From positions 982-64,981 of the forward strand of contig JBBEBM010000062.1 of assembly GCA_040882355.1 (NCBI GenBank): a DNA stretch of 64,000 bases, written 5' to 3'. Positions 1,102 through 50,202 of the stretch are shown in pieces. This stretch comes from Dehalococcoidia bacterium. GTDB taxonomy: Bacteria; Chloroflexota; Dehalococcoidia; DSTF01; RBG-16-68-14. The translations under genes were made by a program, and so were the position numbers. A model generated the notes under the pieces. The model was not told the origin of the DNA, made no database searches, and worked only from the letters and a program-made list of their open reading frames with translations. Numbering within the stretch: position 1 is the first letter of the stretch; the number at the start of each line of letters is the position of its first letter.

Positions 1102-2310
1102 ATGAAGACGTCAACCGCGCACGAGCGGCCACGACTCCTGACGCTGACCAGCACGTTCCCGCGCTGGGAGGGAGACACGTGTCCCATGTTCGTTGCCGAC
1201 CTGTGCCAGGGTCTCGCGGAACGTTTCGACGTGACCGTGCTCGCGCCCGGGTCGAAAGGCGCGGCGCGACAGGAGCAATGGGGCGCCGTGACGGTCAGGC
1301 GCTACCGCTACGGCTGGCCCGACGGATCGCAGCGCCTGGCTGACGGCGCGATCCTGCCGAACCTGAAGCGGAACCGCCTCCTGGTCGGGCAGGTGCCCGT
1401 GTTCGTGCTGGCGCAGCTCTTCTCTGTCTGGCGCCTGGTGCGGAGCGGCGGCTTCGACGCGATCCACGCCCACTGGGTGCTTCCTCAGGGCTGGGTCGCG
1501 GCGCTGGTGGGACCGCGGGGGCGCCTACCGGTGCTCACGACGGCCCACGGCGGAGACTTCCACGCACTGCGGTCGACCGCGCCGCTGGCACTGAAACGCT
1601 GGGCGCTCCAGCGCAGCGACCGCGTTACGGCCGTCAGTTCGTGGCTGAAGCGAGAGGTGACCGCGCTAGGCGTTGAGGAGGAGCGCGTGCGCGTCTTGCC
1701 GATGGGCATCGACACCACGCGCTTCACGCCGGAGGCTGCGACGCAGGCTGGAGGCGGCCATGCTGGCCCGAAGCTGCTCTTCGTGGGGAGGCTGGTAGAG
1801 AAAAAGGGAGCGGGTTACGCGATCGAGGCCATGCAGGTGATCGCGTGCGAAGAGCCGGAAGCTCAACTGCTTATCGTCGGCGACGGACCGGAGCGCGCGG
1901 CGCTGGAGCGCTTGAGCGCTCGCCTCGGCATCCAGGACCGCGTCTCGTTTGCCGGCGCCGTCCCCAACGACAAGCTGCCCGCGCTGTACGCGTCCGCGGA
2001 CCTCTTCGTCGGGCCGACCGCCGAGGAGGGATTAGGTGTCGTGTTTGCCGAGGCGATGGCGAGCGGCTGTCCGGTCATCGCGACCGACGTGGGAGGAGTG
2101 GCAGACCTTGTGATCGACGGCGAGACAGGCGTGCTGGTACCGGAGCGTGACGCAACAGCGATCGCGGGCGCAGCCATCGGGCTCCTCCGTGACCAGGGCC
2201 GCCGCCGGCAGCTAGGACGGAACGGCGTCGCCTGGGTGCGCGAGCGCTTCGACGCGCGGCAGACGGCGACGGGCTACGCCGACTTGATTGAGGAGGTGCT
2301 CGCGGCGTGA
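1102..2310 (+). CDS. Glycosyltransferase family 4 (GT-B, RfaG-like)
   Basis: GT4 C-terminal core present: GRLVEKKG, FVGPTAEEGLGVVFAEAMASGCPVIATDVGG, E-x7-E region. ATG at 1102. The longer listed ORF start at 886 is a high-GC frame artefact overlapping the upstream gene. Confidence 0.85.
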   Translation: MKTSTAHERPRLLTLTSTFPRWEGDTCPMFVADLCQGLAERFDVTVLAPGSKGAARQEQWGAVTVRRYRYGWPDGSQRLADGAILPNLKRNRLLVGQVPVFVLAQLFSVWRLVRSGGFDAIHAHWVLPQGWVAALVGPRGRLPVLTTAHGGDFHALRSTAPLALKRWALQRSDRVTAVSSWLKREVTALGVEEERVRVLPMGIDTTRFTPEAATQAGGGHAGPKLLFVGRLVEKKGAGYAIEAMQVIACEEPEAQLLIVGDGPERAALERLSARLGIQDRVSFAGAVPNDKLPALYASADLFVGPTAEEGLGVVFAEAMASGCPVIATDVGGVADLVIDGETGVLVPERDATAIAGAAIGLLRDQGRRRQLGRNGVAWVRERFDARQTATGYADLIEEVLAA

Positions 2311-3167
2311 CGCACGAGCTTGCGACTCGACCCGCCGACAAGCTGGGGCCGGATGACCTCCAGGCCTACTGGGGACGCGTGAGCGCCGACTACCTGGCCC
2401 GCGACCCGGAAGGTCTGGCCGTCATCTGTTACGCGGGGTTGCCCCGGTGGTTCAACGCCTTCCTCGACCGCTATCAGCGGCGCGCGTTCGACAGGTTGAC
2501 AGCAAGGCTCCGCTTTGCGGGCGCCGATGTGCTGGATCTCGGCACCGGCGTTGGCCGCTGGGCGACCGTCCTTGCGCAACGAGGCGCGGCGCGCGTCGTC
2601 GGCGTCGACCTGGAGGGCGAGCGGCTGGCGCTCGCCCGGGCGCGGTCGAGCTGGGCGGTCGACTACCTGCGCATGGGCGTGGACGGGCTAGCCTTCCCGT
2701 CGCAGAGCTTCGATGTGGTGAACTCGGTCACGGTGTTGCAGCACGTCGACCGAAACGTGAAGTCGCTGGCGATAGCGGAGGCGGCGCGTGTGCTGCGACC
2801 GGGAGGGCATCTCATTCTGTTCGAACGGGCCGACCTCGCTGACCACGCGCCGCACGTCTTCCCTGAGAGTCGCGCCGCCTGGCTCGATCTGTGTGGGCGT
2901 CACGGCCTGCGACTGGTGCGGGAAGAGGGCGATCAGTACACGCCGCTGCTACGCCTCGCGAAGAGGGTGATGCGTGGCAGCTCGGGCCGGACGCGAATCG
3001 ACGAACTCAAGCGCCGCGAAAGCGGACCGGCAATGCTCGCGCTGCGGGCGCTCGTGTTGCTCAGCTATCCGCTGGAGGAGCTGTGCCAACGGCTGCTGCC
3101 GGCGCGCGCCGCAATGATCAGCGGCTACCTACTTGAGAAGCCGGGCCCGGCAACAGGAGCTGCTTGA
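2307..3167 (+). CDS. Class I SAM-dependent methyltransferase
   Basis: Motif I VLDLGTGVGRW, acidic motif II VGVDLE, motif III VLRPGGHLILFE. GTG start overlaps the upstream TGA (GTGA). Confidence 0.75.
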   Translation: MTHELATRPADKLGPDDLQAYWGRVSADYLARDPEGLAVICYAGLPRWFNAFLDRYQRRAFDRLTARLRFAGADVLDLGTGVGRWATVLAQRGAARVVGVDLEGERLALARARSSWAVDYLRMGVDGLAFPSQSFDVVNSVTVLQHVDRNVKSLAIAEAARVLRPGGHLILFERADLADHAPHVFPESRAAWLDLCGRHGLRLVREEGDQYTPLLRLAKRVMRGSSGRTRIDELKRRESGPAMLALRALVLLSYPLEELCQRLLPARAAMISGYLLEKPGPATGAA

Positions 3168-4996
3168 TCGTGGGCTACGATGATGTCGCTGGGGAACGCC
3201 GCACGTTCACGGTCGTGCCGAGGATCCGCGGGATACCGGAGCCCAGCCAAGTCAATGCGGTGACCGTCAGCGATCCGTATCGGACAAGGCTGGCCGGTCC
3301 TCCTGCCGCCGCGCGTTACGGGTCCGGTTGGGAACAGCTGGCGTTGTGGCTGACGACCAGCCGCTACGGCTGGGCGGTCCTGGCGGGCGCGGTCTGGTTC
3401 GTCCTGATGTTTGTCGGCATGCTCTGGCTCTGGCGAGACCCTGCGCCGGAGGTGTTCAGCAGCCCGGACGAGGCGATGAACAGGCTCGCGGCGGAGCAGA
3501 TCGTGAAGACGGGCGTCCCCAGTGTGGAGCTTCCGTTTGACGACCCGGAGGACGTGGCCCATCTACGTTTGCTCGTGAGCACGGGCGACGACGCGATACC
3601 CGTCCTCCCGCCGATGACACCGTACCTCTATGCGGGGCTGCTCGCGTTGCCGCTGGTCGGCGGGTACCTGATCATGCTGCTGGCCGCGGGCGGGGCCGGG
3701 GCGTTCGCCGCGTCGGTCGCGCTGCTCGGCGCGCGACGGCAGTGGGTCAGCCTGCTCGCCCCGGTCGCCGCATTTCCCGCCCTCTACTGGCTCCTGCGGC
3801 CGTGGATCAACATGTCGTTATTCCTCACGTTGGTGAGCGGCGCGTTCCTCTGCCTCGTGCTCTGGAAGCACGAACGGCGGCTGCCGTTCCTCCTTGCGAT
3901 GGGAGCGCTGCTGGCGGTCGCCGCGGCGGTCCGCCCGGACTATACGGCAGTGACCTTCCTGCTGGCGCTGTTCTTCGTCCTGCTGGAAGCGCGACCGAAC
4001 GAGGCGCCAAAAGCGGTGGCGGTGCTGATCGGCTCCGGCGTGCTCGCGGTCCTGCTCATGTTCGCGCTGAACGCAGCCGTGAGCGGCGACCCGCTGACCT
4101 TCGGCTACGAGATCAGTGACCAGCTCGGCCTCCGTCCCGGGACGACGCCAGGCAGGCAGGAGCTGCCGACGCCGCTGGCTGAGATCTATTACCTGTTCCT
4201 CCCGAATGGGGTGCCGGAGTTGGGGCAGGTTGGCACGCAGCTTTGGAAGTACTGGTTCCAGATGGGCCCGATCGCCCTGCTGACCCTGTCGCTCCCAATT
4301 GCCTTGGTGCTGCTCGCCCCTCAAGAGGCCGGCCGGCGGCTGCTCTATGGCGGCGCGATAGCATTCGCGTTCCTTTTTGTCGTTAGCAGGGTCGACGCGG
4401 GGTTCTTCGGCGCGCCGTTTGCCGAGGCGCAATTCCACCACAGCCTGCCGCGCTACTGGTCCCCGGTCTATCTCCTGGCCGTGGTGCCCCTGTGCGTGCT
4501 CGCGATGTCAGCACGCTCGCAGGCGGTGTGGCTGGGAGCGCTTCTTGTGCTGGCGGTCCTAGCCGTGAGCGGCGCGCACCTCGTCTATCTTAGCGGCGGG
4601 CCAGAGTCGATGACCGGTCTTCGCGCGCGCCTCCAGTCCTCGGAGTCCTACGTGGACCGACTTGATACCTTCTTGCCCGACGATGCCATGGTCTATTCGG
4701 CCTTCCTGGACAAGGCGCTCTGGTCGCGGTGGCACGTTGGCTACATACCGCGCAACCAGCAGGGGGTCACGACGCTGCCGGAGTTGGAGCGCGTCAGGTT
4801 GTCACTGGAGAAGGCGGCCGGGGCGCCGCGGCCGGCGTTCTTGATCAGAAAAGGCCAGCTCTCAGACGAAGATTTCCTTGCCTTGCAGGCGAGCCTGGCT
4901 GAGCGCAACCTGACGTTCCGGCCGACCGGGCCTGAGGACTTGCAGGTGTATGTGCTAGGGGCGCTCAGCCCCGCGCCAGACCCGGTCGCACCGTGA
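3164..4996 (+). CDS. Polytopic membrane protein, putative GT-C-fold glycosyltransferase, with a C-terminal soluble domain
   Basis: At least 10 predicted TM helices then an approximately 150-aa hydrophilic C-terminal domain. TTG start overlaps the upstream stop (TTGA). Operon context is with glycosyltransferases. Family assignment is inferred. Confidence 0.6.
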   Translation: MIVGYDDVAGERRTFTVVPRIRGIPEPSQVNAVTVSDPYRTRLAGPPAAARYGSGWEQLALWLTTSRYGWAVLAGAVWFVLMFVGMLWLWRDPAPEVFSSPDEAMNRLAAEQIVKTGVPSVELPFDDPEDVAHLRLLVSTGDDAIPVLPPMTPYLYAGLLALPLVGGYLIMLLAAGGAGAFAASVALLGARRQWVSLLAPVAAFPALYWLLRPWINMSLFLTLVSGAFLCLVLWKHERRLPFLLAMGALLAVAAAVRPDYTAVTFLLALFFVLLEARPNEAPKAVAVLIGSGVLAVLLMFALNAAVSGDPLTFGYEISDQLGLRPGTTPGRQELPTPLAEIYYLFLPNGVPELGQVGTQLWKYWFQMGPIALLTLSLPIALVLLAPQEAGRRLLYGGAIAFAFLFVVSRVDAGFFGAPFAEAQFHHSLPRYWSPVYLLAVVPLCVLAMSARSQAVWLGALLVLAVLAVSGAHLVYLSGGPESMTGLRARLQSSESYVDRLDTFLPDDAMVYSAFLDKALWSRWHVGYIPRNQQGVTTLPELERVRLSLEKAAGAPRPAFLIRKGQLSDEDFLALQASLAERNLTFRPTGPEDLQVYVLGALSPAPDPVAP

Positions 4997-41251: not shown

Positions 41252-41453
41252 GCTGGATGTCTTCCATGGTTAGGCCAAGGTCCTTGGCGATCTTGGCTAC
41301 TGTCCCCTTCTTGATCTCTTTCGTCGGGTGCCGCGGAACGATGGTGTAGAGCTTCTTCTCCGGGTTCCACCAGATCTCGTGGCTGCCGCTTGCCTGGCGG
41401 CGAAACTCAATGCCGAGCCGTTGGAGCCGCCTGGTCAGTTCGCGATATCTCAT
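41244..41453 (-). CDS. hicA: HicA-family toxin (mRNA interferase) of type II TA system
   Basis: 69 aa. LTRRLQRLGIEFRRQASGSHEIW ... VPRHPTKEIKKGTVAKIAKDLGL matches the HicA/YcfA dsRBD-like fold signature, including the catalytic His. Confidence 0.8.
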   Translation of the reverse strand: MRYRELTRRLQRLGIEFRRQASGSHEIWWNPEKKLYTIVPRHPTKEIKKGTVAKIAKDLGLTMEDIQRA

Positions 41454-41701
41454 TCCGGGGCAGGAACGACGAGTTTCGCCAGGATGACGGTGTCCGGCGT
41501 GAACTCCTCCAATCCCGCGGGAAGCGGCACGCCATCCTCCTTCTGAACCTCGAGCAGAACGCGAGCGACATCCTCAAGGTTCTCCAGAGCCTCGGCCACG
41601 GTCTCGCCTTCGGCGTGACAACCCTGGATGACATCGCATATCGCCAGGTAGCCACCTTCCTCTTGGGCCTCGATCTGCACTGGGATCAGCAAGCTCCTCA
41701 T
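41450..41701 (-). CDS. hicB: HicB-family antitoxin (UPF0150, short form without DNA-binding extension)
   Basis: 83 aa, IEAQEEGGYLAICDVIQGCHAEGETVAEALENLEDV. The 4-nt overlap means its stop overlaps the hicA start. Confidence 0.7.
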   Translation of the reverse strand: MRSLLIPVQIEAQEEGGYLAICDVIQGCHAEGETVAEALENLEDVARVLLEVQKEDGVPLPAGLEEFTPDTVILAKLVVPAPE

Positions 41702-41713
41702 CGTCGTCTCCTC

Positions 41714-43183
41714 TCACACCTCCGGGCGCTGCGTGTGCCAGTCAGTGGCCTGCTCGTAGGCGTGGGCGGCGCGCAGCAGCGACGGCTCGTCGAACGGGCG
41801 GGCCATGAGCTGGATGCCGACCGGCAGGCCTTGCACGAACCCCGCCGGCACCGAGATCGCCGGGATGCCGGCGATGTTGATCGGCAGAGTGAAGACGTCG
41901 CTCAGGTACATCTGCATAGGATCGTCCGTCTTCTCGCCAAGCTTGAATGCGGGCGTTGGGGCCACGAGCCCGAGCAGCACGTCGTAGCGCTCGAACGCCG
42001 CCTCGAACTCGCGCCGGATCAGGGTGCGCACCTTGAGCGCCTTCAGGTAGTAGGCGTCGTAGTAGCCGGACGAGAGGGCGTAGGTGCCGACCATGATCCG
42101 CCGCTTGACCTCGTCGCCGAAGCCGTGCTGTCGGGTGCGCTCCATGTTATCCCACATGCCCTCGCCGTCCTGGTACGAGTAGCCGTACTTGACGCCGTCG
42201 TAGCGGGCGAGGTTCGCCGAGGCCTCGCTCGGCGCAATGATGTAGTAGCAGGCGAGCGCGTACGGCGTGCTCGGCAGCGACACGCCCCACTCGACGCTCG
42301 CGCCGAGCGCCTCGAGGCGGGCGACGGCCGCGTCGAGGACGCCGCGCATCTCGGGCGCGAGGTCGTCCGGGGCGTACTCGTTCACCACGCCGATGCGCAG
42401 GCCCTTGATGTCGCCGGTGAGGGCATCGGTGAAGTCGGGCGGGTCGATCGGCGCCGAAGTGGAGTCGCGCGCGTCGTGGCCGGCGATGACGTTCATCATC
42501 AGGGCGGCGTCGCGCACGTCCTTCGTCAGCGGGCCGATCTGGTCGAGCGAGCTGCCGAACGCGACGAGCCCGTAGCGGCTCACGCGCCCGTACGTCGGCT
42601 TCAGGCCGACGACCCCGCAGAGCGAGGCTGGCTGGCGGATGCTACCGCCCGTGTCCGAACCGAGCGCGGCGAACGCCTCGTCGGCGGCGACGGCGGCGGC
42701 CGAGCCGCCCGACGAGCCGCCCGGCACGCAGTCGAGCGCCCAGGGGTTGTGCGTCGGGAAGAACGCGGAGTGCTCCACCGACGAGCCCATCGCGAACTCG
42801 TCCATGTTCGTCTTGCCGGCGAGCACCGCGCCGGCCTCGCGCAGCCGCTCGATGACGTGGGCGTCGTATGGCGGCACGAAGCTCTCCAGCATGCGAGAGC
42901 CGCACGTCGTGCGGACGCCGCGCGTGCACATGTTGTCCTTGATCGCGACCGGCACGCCGGTGAGCGGCCCGCCCTCGCCCCTCGCGATGCACGCGTCCGC
43001 CTCGTCTGCCTGCTGGAGCGCGAGATCCTCGGTCACGGTGAGGTAGGCGTTGACGCGGCCATCGACGGCGCGGATGCGGTCGAGCAGCGCCTGCGTCAGC
43101 TCCCGCGAGCTCACCTCTCGCCTGGCGAGGAGGTCGCCCGCTTCGTGGGCCGTGAGCGTGTGCAGCGAGCCGTTCGCGCTCAT
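41714..43183 (-). CDS. gatA: Glutamyl-tRNA(Gln)/aspartyl-tRNA(Asn) amidotransferase subunit A
   Basis: Amidase signature ([13 protein letters not shown]; [10 protein letters not shown]) in a Ser-cisSer-Lys amidase, 489 aa. Confidence 0.9.
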
Positions 43184-43467
43184 TCGAGCACCGCCCGCAC
43201 GCGGAACGCGCCGTCTTCGACGAGCGGCGCGTTCGCGAGCACCTCCTCGACGCTCAGCGAGGGGCGCACTTCGTCGGCGCGCATCACGCTCTCGAGCGCG
43301 AGCGGGTGCGACGTGGGCGGCACGCCTTCGGTGTCGAGCTGCTTCAGCGCCTCGAAGTGGTCGAGGATGCCCGAAAGCTGCTCCTGGAACTTCGCGACGT
43401 CGTCCTCACTGAGCGCAATGCGCGCCAGGTGGGCGATATGTAGCACCTCTTCTCGGGTCAGGCTCAT
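43180..43467 (-). CDS. gatC: Glu/Asp-tRNA amidotransferase subunit C
   Basis: 95 aa, [19 protein letters not shown] ... ATGA overlap with gatA. The listed ORF start at 43584 is upstream extension. Confidence 0.8.
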
Positions 43468-43677
43468 GCGGTTCGCTCCTGGGTGGTGTATCGCGAGTAT
43501 AGCAGGATGCGCCGCCGAGAGTTCGGACCGGTAGCAGGCGATGTTGGACGGCTCACACTCTCCCAATCGTGCGTCGTGCGTCATTGTCCCGAAAGATTCT
43601 TCGCTCCGCTCAGAATGACAAGGGTGCGCCCTTCGTCCCGCGCTCGCCCTCGTGGTACGATCCTCACGAGCTGGAGG

Positions 43678-44409
43678 ATGACGACGGATACCCCCTCACG
43701 AGAGCAGGTCGCGCTGGGCAACCCCAGCTTCGTCTGGCGATCCGGGCAGGACCGGCGCCTCAACCTGATCCGCCGCTACGCGACGCTCGAAGGCGCGCGC
43801 ATCCTCGACATCGGCTGCGGCATCGGCACCTACGTCCGCAAGTTCCAGGAGTTCAGCGACCGCGTCTACGGCATCGATATCGATGCCGCGCGTGTGCGGC
43901 GGGGCGAGACCGGCAGCCTCGCGCTCGCGGTGAGCGAGCGGCTCCCGTTCACTACCGATTCACTCGACCTAGTGCTGCTGAACGAGGTGATCGAGCACGT
44001 CCGCGACGACGCGCTCACCCTGCGCGAGGCGTGCCGCGTGGTGCGGCCGGGGGGCCACGTTGTGATCTACGCGCCGAACCGCCTCTACCCGTTCGAGACG
44101 CACGGCGTCTACCTGGGCAAGCGCTACGTCTTCGGCAACATCCCGCTCGTGAACTACCTGCCCGATCCGCTGCGCAACCGCCTCGTGCCGCACGCGCGCG
44201 CCTACACGCATCGCGGCATGCAGCGCATCATCGAGGGCCTGCCGGCCGACGTGCTCGCGCACACCTACGTCTACCCCGGCTTCGACAACATCGCTGCGCG
44301 ACGACCGCGGCTCGGCTCGCTGCTCCAGGGCGTCTTCCATCGGCTAGAGGCGACGCCGCTGCGCGCGTTCGGCCTCTCGCACTTCGTGGTGCTGCGGGTA
44401 CGAGAGTAG
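43678..44409 (+). CDS. Class I SAM-dependent methyltransferase
   Basis: ILDIGCGIGTY, YGIDID, VVRPGGHVVIYAPN. The start is uncertain; ATG at 43678 or 43615 are both possible. Confidence 0.6.
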   Translation: MTTDTPSREQVALGNPSFVWRSGQDRRLNLIRRYATLEGARILDIGCGIGTYVRKFQEFSDRVYGIDIDAARVRRGETGSLALAVSERLPFTTDSLDLVLLNEVIEHVRDDALTLREACRVVRPGGHVVIYAPNRLYPFETHGVYLGKRYVFGNIPLVNYLPDPLRNRLVPHARAYTHRGMQRIIEGLPADVLAHTYVYPGFDNIAARRPRLGSLLQGVFHRLEATPLRAFGLSHFVVLRVRE

Positions 44410-44468
44410 CGCCGTCTCCAGGGCGTATCTGCTCATGCAGACGCAACCTAGACGGCGAAGCGTTCGGT

Positions 44469-45365
44469 CTAGCCGCGCTTGTGATCGGCGAGAACTTCTT
44501 CGACGGTGCGTTTCGCCAGCGCGACAAACCCTGGGTTCGTCTCGGGGTAGTACGGGATAATCATGGCCGCTTGGTGGAGTGCGAAGCCGCGTGCTCGGTT
44601 CCACGTGCCGTCGTCGACTTCGAGGGCGCCGCGAAACCTCCATCGCCCGGTATTGCCGAACACGCTCCACGCTGCGATCACGTCGGTGGCGGGATCACCG
44701 ACACCAACACCGCCGAAGTCGATGACCGCGCAGAGCCGGCCGCCGTCAACGAACAGGTTGGGCCTCAGCAGGTCGGTGTGTATCCACACCGGCGTTCCGT
44801 CCCACACCGGTGCTTCGAGTGCGCGCTCCCAGGCGGCGGTGGCCGCATCGCTGTCTATGATGTCCCGCGCCGACTCGATCGCCGCGCGCGTGATGGCGTC
44901 GAGCTCGCGGAGTGGCTTGCGCCCGCCGCGAGGCGCCATCGAATCGATATCTATTCGGCGCAGTTCGACCACGAACCGCGCAAGATCCTTAGCCGCCTGG
45001 CGTTCATCGTCGACGAGGTCATCCGCATACGGCTGGCCGTCGATCCATCGGTAGATCGCCCATGAGAAGGGGTACCCCTCGCCAGGGCTGCCCTTTGCGA
45101 GCGGCTCAGGGACCCGCAGCGGCAGGTGCGGTGCCAGCTTCGGTAGCCAGTGGTACTCCTTTTCGAGGGCGGCTGCCCACCGGTGCACGCGGGGCAGCCG
45201 GACGACCATGTCGTCGCCCAGCCGAAAGATCGCGTTGACCGTCCCAGCGGAGGGGACCGGCTCGATGGGAAGGTCTGCCCACTGCGGGAACTGCGCGGCG
45301 AGCAGCCCCCGCACGAGCGATTCATCGATGTCCACTTCGTCGCTGTGCATCTTCTTCGCAGGCAT
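44469..45365 (-). CDS. APH/Mph-family phosphotransferase (aminoglycoside/macrolide kinase fold)
   Basis: Brenner motif HTDLLRPNLFV and DFGGVGVGDPATD. 298 aa. Sits 17 nt downstream of the GTPase gene on the same strand. Confidence 0.75.
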   Translation of the reverse strand: MPAKKMHSDEVDIDESLVRGLLAAQFPQWADLPIEPVPSAGTVNAIFRLGDDMVVRLPRVHRWAAALEKEYHWLPKLAPHLPLRVPEPLAKGSPGEGYPFSWAIYRWIDGQPYADDLVDDERQAAKDLARFVVELRRIDIDSMAPRGGRKPLRELDAITRAAIESARDIIDSDAATAAWERALEAPVWDGTPVWIHTDLLRPNLFVDGGRLCAVIDFGGVGVGDPATDVIAAWSVFGNTGRWRFRGALEVDDGTWNRARGFALHQAAMIIPYYPETNPGFVALAKRTVEEVLADHKRG

Positions 45366-45381
45366 GCGCGTCTCCTTTGAC

Positions 45382-47391
45382 CTACACCCGCCGCATGACG
45401 TGCAGCAGGTACTCTTTGCGGTTAAGCGGATTGTGGTCCGAACGCGGCCGTGTCGGGACCGCGCCGCGGACCGGTTGGTAGCCGTCGAAGTCCCATTCCA
45501 GCACGCCCTCGCCGCGAGTCAGCGCCGACAGTTGTTGCTGCAGCTCCTGCACCCGGGCCGCCGGAATCTCACCCTCCAGCGTGCACGACGGACCGCGCAT
45601 GGCCGGTGTGTAGGGGACGGCGTCCAGTCGCGCAAGCGCCGACAAGATCGCTCCGAGCGTGTCTGTCGGTGCTTCGAGGTGAAATCGGTGGACCGGCTCG
45701 CATACCGCAGTGCCGGCCTCCTTCAGCGCGCTCATCAGGACGAGCGGCGTCAGGATGCGGAAGTCGGCGGCCGTGCTGCCGGGGGCACGGTAGCCGCTGT
45801 CGATCATGGTCACGGTGCAGTCGGTGACCTGCCAGCCGAAGAGGCCCTCCTGCAGCGTCTCGCGGACGTACTGCCCCATGTGGTCGACGAAGGTGTCGAC
45901 GGTCTTGTAGATGTAGATCGGCATCAGGCGAACGTCGACGTCCAGCCGGAACTCGATGCCCGAGCCGATCGGCGCAGGGTCGAGGCGCAGCCCGACCGTG
46001 GCGAGGAACGGGTTCGAGCTGATGGGCGAGCTGTTCCCGGTGACGTTCGCCTTCGTCTTGGCGTAGAGGACCTCGACGGCTTCGCCGGTGCCGGCGGGCC
46101 GTTCGATGCAGATCGTCGTTGTTTCGCGGAACTCGACGGCGATGTTGAAGTCGTTCGCCAGCGTTGCCTGGATGACCTCCTTCTGCACCTCACCGTAGAG
46201 CGAGACTGACGTCTCTTGCCGAATGTCGTCCTGTCGTACGTTGATCAGCGGGTCCTGTTCGGCGAGCTGGGCGAGCGCAATGTGGAGCGCACCTTTGTCA
46301 GCGGGGCGACGCGGAACGATGACGGATTCCAGTGTCGGCGGGGCGAAATGGTGACGCTGCGAGGTCGGGCGCGATGTGCCGAGGGTGTCGCCGATCTGGA
46401 TATCGCCGAGACCCCAGAGCTTTCCAATCCGCCCTGCGGCGACCGATGCGCACTGGGCGGCTGAGCCGCGGTCGAACACCCTGATCGCGGTGACTTTCGC
46501 CTCGTTGTCCCGGTCGAATTGCAGCCGGTCGCGCGTTCGTACTGTTCCCGAGAACATGCGCACGTACGCGACCTTCTCCCCGGCCGGACCGCGTTCGACC
46601 TTGAACACGGTGCCCGAGGCGGGGCCATCGACATCGCCTTCGGCCGCGGGCAGCAGCTCGGCGATACCGGCGATCAGCGGCTCCACGCCCGCGCCCGTGA
46701 TGGCCGAGCCGAAGAACACCGGATGCACCAGCGCCTGCCGGGTCTGCGTCGCAAGCTCGTCGCGGAGTTGATCGTGCGAAACTGCCGTCTCGTCGTCGAC
46801 GTAGGCGGCCAACACGGCATCGTTGTGTTCAGCAAGCAGACCGGCCAGGCTGGCCCCAAAAGCAACGTTGGCCGAGCTGTACGGCGCAACATCGGCGGCG
46901 CGCGTGCCGAGGTCGCGCGCCGATCCCATCGAGATGATTGCCGGCGTCAGTTTCTCGGCAATGTCCTGTAACACGCGCTCATACTGCGCCCCGCCGCGGT
47001 CGATCTTGTTCACGAAGATGAGGGAGGGAATACGCAGCCGCTGTAGCGTCCGCATCAAGACGCGGGTCTGCGGCTGCACGCCCTCCACCGCGGAGATCAC
47101 CAGCACGGCGCCGTCGAGCACGCTCAACACCCGTTCCACCTCGGCGATGAAGTCCGGGTGACCGGGCGTGTCGATCAGGTTGACCGTCACGTCATCGATA
47201 ACGAACGATACGACCGCGGACTTGATGGTAATGCCGCGTTGCCGTTCGAGCGTCAGGGAATCGGTCTGGGTAGTGCCGTCATCGACGCGGCCGATCTTGT
47301 CGATGACACCGGCGGCGTAGAGCAGCCGCTCGGTCAGGGTGGTCTTACCGGCGTCTACATGCGCCAAAATCCCCAAGTTCAAGGTTCGCAT
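45382..47391 (-). CDS. Tet(M)/Tet(O)/OtrA-like ribosomal protection protein (translational GTPase, EF-G fold)
   Basis: [25 protein letters not shown] (compare Tet(M) [25 protein letters not shown]). G3 DTPGH, G4 NKID. 669 aa with EF-G-like domains II-V. Confidence 0.75.
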   Translation of the reverse strand: [669 protein letters not shown]

Positions 47392-47455
47392 TGAGCGTCA
47401 TGTCCTCCAAGTAGGTGACGATTCGTTGCTGCGTGGACATGTACGCTCGGCGCAT
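47345..47455 (-). promoter_or_regulatory. Candidate leader-peptide uORF (36 codons) with strong SD, overlapping the RPP start out of frame
   Basis: Minus strand: AAGGAGAAGGAAC-ATG CGC CGA GCG TAC ATG TCC ... TAA. Encodes MRRAYMSTQQRIVTYLEDMTLNANLELGDFGACRRR. The main ATG at 47391 lies inside it in the +1 frame. Confidence 0.3.
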
Positions 47456-47590
47456 GTTCCTTCTCCTTGGTCGATTGGCTGTTGTCGGTAGTAAAGCAGA
47501 TGGCCACCGGGGAGGGCAACCGATATGTGGGGCATCGTCACCGATACGACAAGTACGCCCTCGCCTACCTCGGCGGCGGCATCTTCGCGG

Positions 47591-48289: not shown

Positions 48290-48745
48290 TCACTCGGCCA
48301 GGCCTGCGACGGGTATGACGTTCATCGAGTCGTCATCCACACTCCATGCACCGACCACGGACTCCGTCTGAGCTGGTGTTTGGCAATGCAACTCGACTCG
48401 CCAACGCCCACGCGGATCAAATGTAGCGGTCCACTCTGCTGGTACAAGTGGCGCGGACACCCTTTCCGTTCCTTGCGCGATAGTGTCAACGAACACCACG
48501 TAATCCTCCGGCGACTGGAATTTGAAACATACATAGTGTGCGATGCCCGACCAGTTGGCGTCGAAGATATTGAGTTCAGTGATATCGGTGGTGCGCTGTC
48601 CGACAATCCCAATAGCCTCCTCCTCGGTCAGGTTGGGGCGCACAACTGTCGCAGTTGGCGCCAAAGGCATCTCCGACGATCCTTCGCAACCGAGGAGTGT
48701 CAAGGCTGCGGCGAAGCCGGCACCCAGCAGCATAAGGGCTTTCAT
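48290..48745 (-). CDS. Small lipoprotein (151 aa), function unknown
   Basis: Signal plus lipobox MKALMLLGAGFAAALTLLGCEG. ATG at 48745. The listed 377-aa ORF is an out-of-frame-like upstream extension overlapping argH. Confidence 0.5.
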   Translation of the reverse strand: MKALMLLGAGFAAALTLLGCEGSSEMPLAPTATVVRPNLTEEEAIGIVGQRTTDITELNIFDANWSGIAHYVCFKFQSPEDYVVFVDTIAQGTERVSAPLVPAEWTATFDPRGRWRVELHCQTPAQTESVVGAWSVDDDSMNVIPVAGLAE

Positions 48746-50202
48746 GAGCGGGTCTCGCGAGTGTGGGATGTCGAAGTCCCCAACCTCCGGCGCCACTTTC
48801 GCAGCGCGGCGGCGACGCGGCGGGGGGCGGTGCCGCCCGGCACGTCGCGAGCGCGGAGCGAGGCGTTCAGGTCCAGCTTGAGGACGTCTTTGCCGAAGAG
48901 CGGCGAGCAGCGCGTGAACTCGTCCAGCGTGAGGCGCGAGAACGGCTTGCCTTCCGCTTCCGCGTACTGGACCAGCTTGCCGACGACCTCGTGCGCCTGC
49001 CGGAAGGGCAGCCCCTTGCGTGCGAGGTAATCGGCGTAGTCGGTCGCCAGGGCGTAGTCGGCGACTGCCGCGCGCCGGGCGCGAGCGGCGTCGAACGTGA
49101 GCTCCGGCGCCATCGCCGCGAACACTTGCAGCGTTTCGAGCAGCGTGTCCTCCGCCTCGAAGAAGCCGCGCTTGTCCTCCTGCAGGTCTCGGTTGTAGGA
49201 GAGCGGCAGCGCCTTCAGCATCGCCAGCGCGGTCGTGAGCAGGCCGTCGACGCGGGCCGTGCGCGCGCGGGCCAGCTCCGCGACGTCCGGGTTGCGCTTC
49301 TGCGGCATGATGCTCGATCCCGTCGCGAAGGCGTCCGGCAGCCGCACGAAGCCGAACTCGGCGCTCGACCAGAGCACGAGCTCCTCGGCGAGGCGCGAAA
49401 CGTGCGTCATGCAGAGCGCGCACGCGGCGATGAAGTCGACGACGAAGTCACGGTCGGACACGGCATCGAGGCTGTTCTCGCTGACGCGGGCGAAGCCCAG
49501 CTCGCGCGCGACCGACTCCCTGTCGATCGGGTAAGGCACGCCCGCGAGGGCGCCGCTGCCGAGCGGCATCACGTCGGCGCGCCGGCGAGCGTCGCCGAAG
49601 CGCTCGATGTCGCGTTCGAGCATCTCGAGGTAGGCAAGCAGGTGGTGCGCCAGCAGCACCGGCTGCGCCCGCTGCAGGTGCGTGTAGCCGGGCATGACGA
49701 CGCGCCGGTTCGCTTCGGCGAGCGAGAGCAGCGCCCGCTGGAGGGCGCGGACCGACTCGATGGCCCGATCGCAGGCGCGCTTCGCGTACAGACGGAGGTC
49801 GGTCGCGACCTGGTCGTTGCGCGAGCGCGCCGTATGGAGCCGGCCCGCGGCGTCGCCGATCTTGTCGCGCAGGCGCGCCTCGACGTTGGTGTGGATGTCC
49901 TCCAGCTCGTCGCGCCAGCGGAAGCGCCCGGCGTCGATCTCCTTCTCGATCTCCTGCAGGCCGCGCACGATGGCGCTCGCGTCGGCCCGCGCGATGATCC
50001 GCTGGCGGCCGAGCATGCGCGCGTGGGCGATCGAAGCGGCGATCTCTTCGCGCCAGAGGCGGCGGTCGATGGGCAACGAGAGCGTGTAGGCGTCGACGAG
50101 CGGGTGAGTGCTATCGCGGAAGCGGCCGCCCCAGGTCTTGCCCGACGCAGCGCGCCCGGCCGGGGCGGGACGGCGCGATGGGCGCGGCTTCTGGCTCGCC
50201 AT
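48742..50202 (-). CDS. argH: Argininosuccinate lyase
   Basis: Fumarate-lyase signature GSSIMPQKRNPD. WGGRF N-terminus. 486 aa. Confidence 0.9.
   Translation of the reverse strand: MASQKPRPSRRPAPAGRAASGKTWGGRFRDSTHPLVDAYTLSLPIDRRLWREEIAASIAHARMLGRQRIIARADASAIVRGLQEIEKEIDAGRFRWRDELEDIHTNVEARLRDKIGDAAGRLHTARSRNDQVATDLRLYAKRACDRAIESVRALQRALLSLAEANRRVVMPGYTHLQRAQPVLLAHHLLAYLEMLERDIERFGDARRRADVMPLGSGALAGVPYPIDRESVARELGFARVSENSLDAVSDRDFVVDFIAACALCMTHVSRLAEELVLWSSAEFGFVRLPDAFATGSSIMPQKRNPDVAELARARTARVDGLLTTALAMLKALPLSYNRDLQEDKRGFFEAEDTLLETLQVFAAMAPELTFDAARARRAAVADYALATDYADYLARKGLPFRQAHEVVGKLVQYAEAEGKPFSRLTLDEFTRCSPLFGKDVLKLDLNASLRARDVPGGTAPRRVAAALRKWRRRLGTSTSHTRETRS

Follow-up and report, generated by a model that had tools for sequence, protein, structure and literature searches.

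We examined a locus in a 64-kb window (the whole 64,000-nt stretch of contig JBBEBM010000062.1, from a Dehalococcoidia bacterium) in which a short upstream open reading frame (uORF) precedes a gene for an Otr(A)/Tet-like ribosomal protection GTPase and a gene for an APH-fold kinase. All features described below lie on the minus strand unless stated otherwise. The uORF has 36 codons and runs from an ATG at 47455 to a TAA at 47347-47345 (47455-47345; MRRAYMSTQQRIVTYLEDMTLNANLELGDFGACRRR), with the Shine-Dalgarno (SD) sequence AAGGAG at 47468-47463 and a 7-nt spacer to the ATG. The GTPase gene (47391-45382, 669 amino acids) begins 64 nt downstream of the uORF ATG, and its SD, GGAGGA at 47408-47403, stands 11 nt before its own ATG at 47391. 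The uORF crosses this start codon in the -1 (= +2) frame and ends within the gene, the last sense codon lying 44 nt inside and the end of the stop codon 47 nt; the TAA is built from the GGT-AAG codons of the GTPase P-loop. The kinase gene (45365-44469, 298 amino acids) has its ATG 16 nt past the GTPase stop and a recognizable SD of its own, AAGGAG-N6, at 45377-45372. A preliminary description of this DNA had reported the same uORF, with its AAGGAG-N7-ATG, its 64-nt offset and its end 44 nt inside the gene in another frame, as well as the distant GGAGGA; these coordinates were confirmed, and only the kinase spacing, given there as 17 nt, needed correction.

The DNA of the window is 68% G+C, and its ORF listing contains 108 ORFs of at least 30 amino acids in 12 kb. 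At this base composition a 36-codon ORF taken by itself is within chance expectation, and the significance of the uORF comes from the comparison across loci described below.

The GTPase scored 738 bits against the NCBIfam model for Otr(A) and 717 against that for tet_protect, versus 296 for EF-G and 187 for EF-G2, although both leading scores fall below the curated cut-offs (775 bits for the tet_protect equivalog and 900 for Otr(A)). It contains five EF-G-type Pfam domains (GTP_EFTU, EF-G_D2, EFG_III, EFG_IV and EFG_C), and it aligned end to end with the TetO and TetM structures at 384 and 374 bits, compared with about 230 for EF-G structures. Loop III of domain IV aligns without gaps to that of TetO (YRAPGS vs. 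YYSPVS), with the first Tyr and the Pro kept and the second Tyr and the Ser/Val changed; the Tyr and Pro of this motif in TetM and TetO reportedly contact the tetracycline site. An identical protein at NCBI, from a Dehalococcoidia metagenome-assembled genome (MAG), is annotated as a 'translation factor GTPase family protein'. By these sequence comparisons the GTPase groups, as had been proposed earlier, with the tetracycline ribosomal protection proteins and not with EF-G or EF-G2, and it is a homolog nearest to Otr(A). Soil and groundwater metagenomes are rich in relatives at 72-86% identity, which were found in Chloroflexota, Rubrobacter, Streptosporangiales, Acidimicrobiia, Streptomyces and other groups, and across loci the GTPases have their own conserved ATG, GTG or TTG start.

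Conservation of the upstream reading frame

Leaders were compared across 80 genome loci and 10 loci of closest relatives, from Actinomycetota and Chloroflexota, whose GTPases are 62-86% identical to that of the window. Across about 150 soil-bacterial loci of these two phyla, both the uORF and an RNA hairpin over the GTPase start are conserved. The genes upstream vary among loci (DinB, an AMP-binding enzyme, SDR, PAP2, TMP-TENI, ankyrin, esterase or PadR, and rpe in the window), yet despite these unrelated neighbors the 100 nt 5' of the GTPase start can be aligned almost everywhere. About 83 of the 91 genome loci contain an ORF that has an SD, starts with ATG or GTG and follows the pattern MRxAFMS...EDMTL...GACRRR, and gene callers had independently annotated a 36-amino-acid gene at the uORF position in three loci (L089, L090 and L214). 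Conservation had been set beforehand as the test that could refute the uORF; it was found, with the SD and the start codon, in close and distant relatives alike.

The reading frame was assessed in two ways. Two conserved nucleotide blocks were located without regard to frame, and both were present in 83 of the 91 loci. The distance from the uORF ATG to the GTPase SD (SD2) was 48 nt in 71 loci and 39, 42, 45 or 51 nt, all in phase, in 10 more; it was out of phase in 2. An independent scan of metagenomes, which used only the two helix arms described in the next section with a free gap of 17-32 nt, recovered 73 unique leaders. An ATG or GTG stood at the expected site in 72 of these, an SD-like motif lay upstream in 72, and the GTPase motif followed in 69. 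The loop gap was 20, 23, 26, 29 or 32 nt, and thus in phase, in 63 of the 73 leaders; the other 10 had a gap of 30 nt, with a uORF of 16 codons whose TAA abuts SD2, an arrangement shared by the genome locus L063. This 16-codon class (L063, L092, L093, L111, L113, L124, L145, L148, L155, L160 and L169) has a loop 1 nt longer and its TAA at the GTPase SD, and does not read through the gene start. Over nt 3-63 of 57 leaders no stop codon occurred in the uORF frame, compared with 15 (beyond a conserved TGA) and 11 in the other two frames. The in-phase gaps, together with a 16-codon class that has its own TAA, indicate at the sequence level that the frame is held open in every leader class.

The uORF stop codon lies in codons of the GTPase gene, and its maintenance there provides a further line of evidence. 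Gly15 of the GTPase is encoded by GGT, which gives the uORF TAA, in 73 of the 80 unique leader-bearing loci, whereas Gly34 and Gly39 are mostly GGC. All seven leader-bearing loci without this GGT have Val12 as GTT, which produces a TGA in the uORF frame 9 nt earlier, and GTT and GGT never occur together in read-through leaders (Fisher p = 1.5e-8 for the coupling, uncorrected for relatedness). For each of the seven GTT loci, the nearest relative by GTPase lies outside the group of seven. Since these loci are scattered and form no clade, the coupled change probably arose more than once. Three further loci lack the GGT: L007 and L009, which are leaderless, and L039, in which the uORF is out of phase and ends, judged by eye, at a TAG inside CAT-GTA-GAC. 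L007 and L009 are Roseiflexaceae and Herpetosiphonaceae loci (about 2890-3060), and L009 keeps the kinase directly downstream. We regard the coupled maintenance of the stop as the strongest evidence that sequence offers for translation of the uORF.

Codon usage at the start of the GTPase gene is itself unusual. Among codons 4-16 (47344-47382), TTG, ATT, CAT, GTA and GGT are atypical for a high-G+C gene, and across 80 loci the codons end in G or C from codon 17 onward. Val12 is GTA in 48 of 80 loci, and the uORF stop explains only GGT and GTT among these atypical codons. The conserved ends of the uORF peptide (MRxAFMS and EDMTL) coincide with the two arms of an RNA helix, and the peptide sequence itself is probably not the point.

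A predicted helix joining the two start codons

The 5' strand of the helix (47435-47454) comprises uORF nt 1-20, and the 3' strand (47387-47408) takes in the GTPase start codon (47391-47389) along with part of the GTPase SD, as indicated by minimum free energy (MFE) folding, pair probabilities and covariation. The core of the 5' strand is GCGTACATGTCC at 47446-47435; its partner GGACATGACGC occupies 47405-47395, from where the 3' strand extends to 47387. Across leaders, the 5' core arm (uORF nt 9-20) reads GCG(U)UCAUGUCC and its partner reads GGACAUGA-CGC; the latter takes in the 3' half of the GTPase SD and, in the window, stops 3 nt short of the start codon of the GTPase. When pair probabilities were averaged over 58 leaders, the helix spanned uORF nt 1-20 with nt 50-68, and mean probabilities for the 5' strand ranged from 0.38 to 0.93. 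The start codons of both the uORF and the GTPase therefore lie in the same predicted helix, with the uORF SD outside it. The MFE fold of the window leader follows the same pattern (-48 kcal/mol, z -2.1), and the hairpin-arm pattern occurs once in the window, with 0 occurrences expected from shuffles.

This named helix was tested on an alignment of 80 sequences, with slid partners and 500 shuffles as controls. Pairing was possible in 88.6% of helix cells, compared with 28-52% in the slid controls. Six of the 11 pairs show changes on both sides, and the number of compensatory cells was 21 against 7.4 +/- 2.4 in the shuffles, of which 0 of 500 reached 21. Examples include G-C to U-A in L013, L025, L058 and L078, G-C to A-U in L036, L037, L048, L059 and L074, and a lower stem that is fully re-coded in L047, L055 and L065. 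Inspection by eye of the Gaiellales-type loci (GGGUAUGA) indicated that pairing is kept there through two G-U wobbles while the peptide is altered. When a ribosome footprint was simulated on the uORF start or on codon 5, the predicted probability that the GTPase ribosome-binding site (RBS) is unpaired rose from 0.26 to 0.43 and 0.49, respectively, in 58 of 58 leaders.

The search for other structures in the leader yielded little. No alternative anti-sequestor hairpin emerged from the alignment or the pair probabilities, in which a single conserved long-range helix was found. The GTPase segment GCGCATGTAGAC could pair with the 3' arm, for which no support was obtained, and a longer pairing between the uORF SD and GTPase codons 5-7, present in the window MFE fold, was dropped because it is inconsistent across leaders. 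A local hairpin within GTPase codons 9-15 (47348-47367; TTGGCG / CGCCGG, loop CATGTAGA) stands just before the uORF stop; 95% of its cells pair and its mean pair probabilities are 0.5-0.7, with no pair changed on both sides. A terminator scan found no terminator-like site between the uORF ATG (47455) and the GTPase ATG (47391). No Rfam family was detected, either in the whole window at gathering thresholds or in the leader at E <= 1.

Promoter-like block, kinase and gene neighborhood

A promoter-like region lies upstream of the uORF at 47490-47528 and consists of an AT-rich ACATAT (47528-47523), CGG, a -35 TTGCCC (47519-47514), an 18-nt spacer and a -10-like TTTACT (47495-47490). In 63 of 81 unique leaders, a block of the form (G/C/T)AAAT-CGG-TTGCC-N18-TGTACT/TGCACT/TACACT is found about 62-65 nt 5' of the uORF ATG. 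The published WblC motif is GAAAWY-N3-TKGMNN-N16-19-TANNNT. The block in the relatives resembles this architecture, with -10 hexamers that mostly lack an A at position 2, and may act as a WblC/WhiB7-type promoter. In Streptomyces coelicolor, tetM (SCO0783) is a direct target of WblC and is induced about 180-fold, with the downstream SCO0784. From the other Streptomyces loci sampled, SCO0783 is presumed to belong to the leader-bearing set.

The WblC/WhiB7-type block is also kept in the Chloroflexota MAG loci (L081-L090), and no GVWGG (WhiB) motif was found within the 64-kb window. Horizontal transfer of the whole module, or another factor that reads the same motif, could account for the block in Chloroflexota. 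The promoter spacer is itself conserved in L001-L090 (..GGGGTGGCC(A/G)TCTGC..; window 47496-47521), beyond what a spacer needs, and its window copy was picked up as a hairpin of terminator type (GGTTGCC/GGTGGCC, including G-T pairs). This conserved spacer could be an operator or a structured element.

The kinase matched Pfam APH with 129 bits, and its translation contains the catalytic H-x-D-x4-N (HTDLLRPN) and D-F-G (IDFG) motifs. Its best solved structure is APH(2'')-Id (56 bits). No curated resistance-kinase family was reached, the scores being 44 bits against a cut-off of 600 for APH(2'')-Ie/IVa, 24 against 550 for Mph(A) and 18.5 against 400 for Vph. The kinase belongs instead to a large, well-conserved environmental family (75-92% identity, more than 120 clusters). 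It follows the GTPase in the window and in L082/83 (87% identity), L087, L086, L018 (Rubrobacter), L009 and L214, in the last of which (1931-4900) it lies behind both uORF and GTPase; in L084/85 it also lies behind the GTPase, after a methyltransferase. In most Actinomycetes loci the kinase is not behind the GTPase, and the family also occurs as a stand-alone gene, in L211-L213 (4001-4879), with an upstream region of 110-135 nt without the leader.

Judged from the gene layout, the kinase is co-transcribed with the GTPase in the same operon. The preliminary description had proposed an APH/Mph-family kinase in a common operon with the GTPase; the operon holds, and the gene recurs behind the GTPase elsewhere, but membership in a curated APH or Mph family does not. 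The suggestion that the kinase extends the operon to a second ribosome-targeting antibiotic class is likewise unsupported, since it matches no curated resistance family.

Other genes accompany the GTPase in its relatives. A SAM-dependent methyltransferase (S-adenosylmethionine-dependent; Methyltransf_11/25) is found in L084/L085, L089 and L082, 18 nt past the GTPase stop or after the kinase, and the extra genes also include a GNAT acetyltransferase in L082 and a MerR/GyrI-like regulator in L087. In relatives, the cassette seems to collect genes of the drug-modifying type.

The genes around the cassette in the window are of the housekeeping kind (rpe, argH, a HAD hydrolase, an aminotransferase and a methyltransferase), with rpe upstream of the GTPase. 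Of the two possibilities raised earlier, a self-resistance or an intrinsic-resistance module, these neighbors fit intrinsic resistance better and make self-resistance within a biosynthetic cluster unlikely. The methyltransferase gene convergent to the kinase gene (43483-44409, plus strand) differs from the methyltransferase linked to the GTPase in relatives. Between the convergent kinase and methyltransferase stops lies a long hairpin (44410-44457, 48 nt, -28.8 kcal/mol, z -1.35) that has no U run and may mark the end of the operon, though the evidence is weak. Two long ORFs in the window had no Pfam match. The one at 48290-49423 (minus strand) shares sequence, in another frame, with the argininosuccinate lyase gene (48742-50202) and is probably spurious, and the one at 41390-43534 (plus strand) has an antisense ORF across it (41714-43183).

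Proposed translational attenuation, its alternatives and known systems

Conservation of the uORF and of a covarying helix, the family to which the GTPase belongs and the layout of the operon are established by the comparisons above, and it is from these that we infer stalling, induction, promoter use and resistance. We consider it fairly probable that the locus is an intrinsic-resistance operon, composed of promoter, uORF, Otr(A)/Tet-type GTPase and APH-fold kinase, in which the GTPase is under uORF-dependent translational attenuation. Because the helix buries the GTPase RBS, no terminator was found and the uORF overlaps the GTPase start, such attenuation would be of the translational type seen in ermC and tetQ. 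The analogy with Tet(M) attenuation drawn in the preliminary description does not fit for the same reasons, as Tet(M) attenuation acts on transcription through a terminator.

In the free mRNA, uORF nt 1-20 (from the start codon to codon 7) would pair with a stretch that runs from the GTPase SD through the spacer and start codon into the first two bases of codon 2, leaving the uORF SD outside the helix. With no drug present, a ribosome translating the uORF would traverse the helix, cover the GTPase start in passing and terminate 29-47 nt inside the gene, after which the helix would re-form and the GTPase would rarely be initiated. A ribosome slowed or arrested on the first codons of the uORF would instead hold the 5' strand and leave the GTPase RBS single-stranded, and a drug-free ribosome could then start the GTPase and the kinase behind it. 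Transcription would probably begin at the WblC/WhiB7-type promoter, which would supply a first, transcriptional layer of induction by translation stress. Tetracycline blocks delivery of tRNA to the A site and traps ribosomes at or near start codons. This trapping fits the position of the 5' arm, which a ribosome at codons 1-7 would cover, so that an arrest peptide would not be needed.

Several observations weigh against translational attenuation of this kind. The leader is clearly missing in two Chloroflexia loci, L007 and L009 only, though the GTPase is present in both. The helix core CAUGUCC / GGACAUG is nearly invariant, and its support comes mostly from conservation and not from covariation. 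RNAalifold gave a weak result: it recovered 6 pairs when the alignment was gapped, and no leader helix from the 58 ungapped sequences; for this reason we relied on the named-structure test and on per-sequence pair probabilities. The GTPase SD is a long 11 nt from the start codon, and only its 3' half is inside the helix. In the uORF frame, a frame test of loop codons 8-16 found no excess of amino-acid similarity or of synonymous change, and a role of the peptide as an arrest peptide or functional micro-protein is not supported by the sequences. The window copy of the promoter is degenerate (ACATAT; TTTACT). To our knowledge, WhiB-like proteins are not known in Chloroflexota and are regarded as actinobacterial. 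Finally, translation of the uORF would always open the helix, and the net sign of its effect, repression or coupling, is not decidable from sequence.

This last point leads to the main rival, positive translational coupling, in which the helix would always block the GTPase start and uORF translation would open it, possibly with re-initiation, while any response to drug would come from the promoter only. Such coupling would suit a GTPase SD that is distant and partly paired, as well as the near-optimal uORF SD outside the helix, and in the 16-codon class the TAA abutting SD2 lies 14 nt before the GTPase GTG, a typical distance for re-initiation. However, the majority class ends 47 nt past the GTPase start, which is poor for re-initiation, and the passing ribosome would occlude that start. 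Known resistance-gene leaders of like geometry (ermC, cat and tetQ) attenuate, and coupling by itself would leave unexplained why the 5' arm falls exactly where a ribosome at codons 1-7 would sit. We consider coupling unlikely.

It is also conceivable that only the RNA structure matters, as a hairpin for stability or processing or as a protein-binding site, and that the open frame is a by-product of G+C content and of the overlapping GTPase codons. Long accidental ORFs are common in this DNA, the loop is without selection at the amino-acid level, and the helix arms account for the conserved MRxAFMS and EDMTL residues. This explanation appears distinctly improbable to us in view of the SD and the ATG or GTG conserved at fixed spacing, the in-phase loop indels, the zero stops in the uORF frame, and a stop retained through coupled GGT/GTT in scattered lineages, a constraint that is absent in the leaderless L007 and L009.

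Transcriptional attenuation of the Tet(M)/Tn916 type, by which leader translation would control a terminator upstream of the gene, has a precedent in Tet(M) itself, with a preprint on a tet(M) cis-RNA of E. faecium as a further case, and uORF-terminator switches are used by many ARE-ABCF genes of Actinomycetes. It is disfavored here as very improbable, since no stem with a U run lies between uORF and GTPase, the overlap of the uORF with the GTPase start leaves no room for a terminator, and the helix is followed by CTCAATG and not by a U tract. That the uORF is joined to the GTPase by a programmed +1 frameshift of the prfB kind is scarcely credible: the -1 frame of the uORF is the right relation for a +1 shift and the GTPase frame has a conserved TGA behind an SD-like GGAGGA, but that TGA lies 9 nt 5' of the start and would terminate any shift made before the start, shifting at the uORF stop would exchange the N-terminal 15 residues of the GTPase for others and destroy the G1 motif AHVDAGKT, and the GTPase keeps its own conserved ATG, GTG or TTG start.

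Returning to attenuation, a broader version of it can be put forward only tentatively, as we rate it somewhat less probable than not. The locus may represent an undescribed two-phylum module in which a WblC/WhiB7-type promoter is combined with a start-codon-to-start-codon helix, and in which the arrested early-uORF ribosome is the only anti-sequestor. Such a module would be a generic sensor of A-site and early-elongation inhibitors for the intrinsic 'tetM' of Actinomycetota, moved with its promoter into Chloroflexota and there driving a new antibiotic-kinase-like family.

In the actinobacterial response to translation inhibitors, few genes are induced as strongly as those for TetM/Otr(A)-like GTPases, whose control has so far been described at the promoter only. 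If attenuation holds, the conserved uORF-helix leader would add a second, translational checkpoint and offer a testable model of sensing an A-site drug (tetracycline) without an arrest peptide. The leader signature, two arms of 11-12 nt whose distance is fixed and in phase, retrieves this resistance family from metagenomes and would mark its probably inducible copies. The kinase, closely linked to the GTPase and well conserved, is a candidate for a new drug-modifying enzyme in the soil resistome.

Attenuation of resistance genes by leader peptides has long been known. Like the leaders of ermC, cat and cmlA, the leader described here has a short uORF with its own SD, one helix arm in the uORF and the other burying the RBS of the resistance gene, and a drug-stalled ribosome as the presumed anti-sequestor. 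It differs in that the uORF mostly crosses the SD and start of the gene and ends 29-47 nt inside it, both start codons lie in one helix, no arrest-peptide signature is seen, and the presumed inducer acts at the A site and not in the exit tunnel; in addition, there are two pairing segments here as opposed to four in ermC. The tetQ leader of the Bacteroides element CTnDOT, which acts by translational attenuation with a leader peptide of 3 codons, is a precedent for a ribosomal protection gene: its RBS is hidden in the leader RNA and presumably freed by tetracycline-stalled ribosomes on the leader ORF. However, its peptide is only 3 codons long, its RNA fold is unrelated, there is no sequence similarity, and its host belongs to another phylum. 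Tet(M) of Tn916 likewise has a leader peptide ORF upstream of a ribosomal protection gene, and tetracycline induction is a property of Tet(M); its leader uses terminators and acts on transcription, whereas here no terminator is present and the leader overlaps the gene start.

The kinase shares the fold and the H-x-D-x4-N and D-F-G motifs of APH(2'')-IVa/Id, Mph and the viomycin kinases, and it stands beside a gene for resistance to ribosome-targeting drugs. It differs from them in scoring only 56 bits to the nearest structure and 44 against a cut-off of 600 to the nearest family, and in forming an environmental family of its own.

A further counterpart is S. coelicolor tetM (SCO0783), an actinobacterial TetM/Otr(A)-like GTPase with a co-transcribed downstream gene (SCO0784); the promoter block of related loci resembles the WblC motif architecture. 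The paper on its control by WblC describes transcriptional regulation only, with no uORF or helix, and the window differs in coming from a Chloroflexota MAG, where WblC homologs are not expected. No published description of the leader was found in full-text searches of open-access papers and bioRxiv. Compared with these systems, the leader is new in form in its two-segment helix joining both start codons, in a uORF that usually crosses the gene start and ends within the gene at a stop kept by selection, in its conservation across two phyla, and in its combination with a WblC-type promoter.

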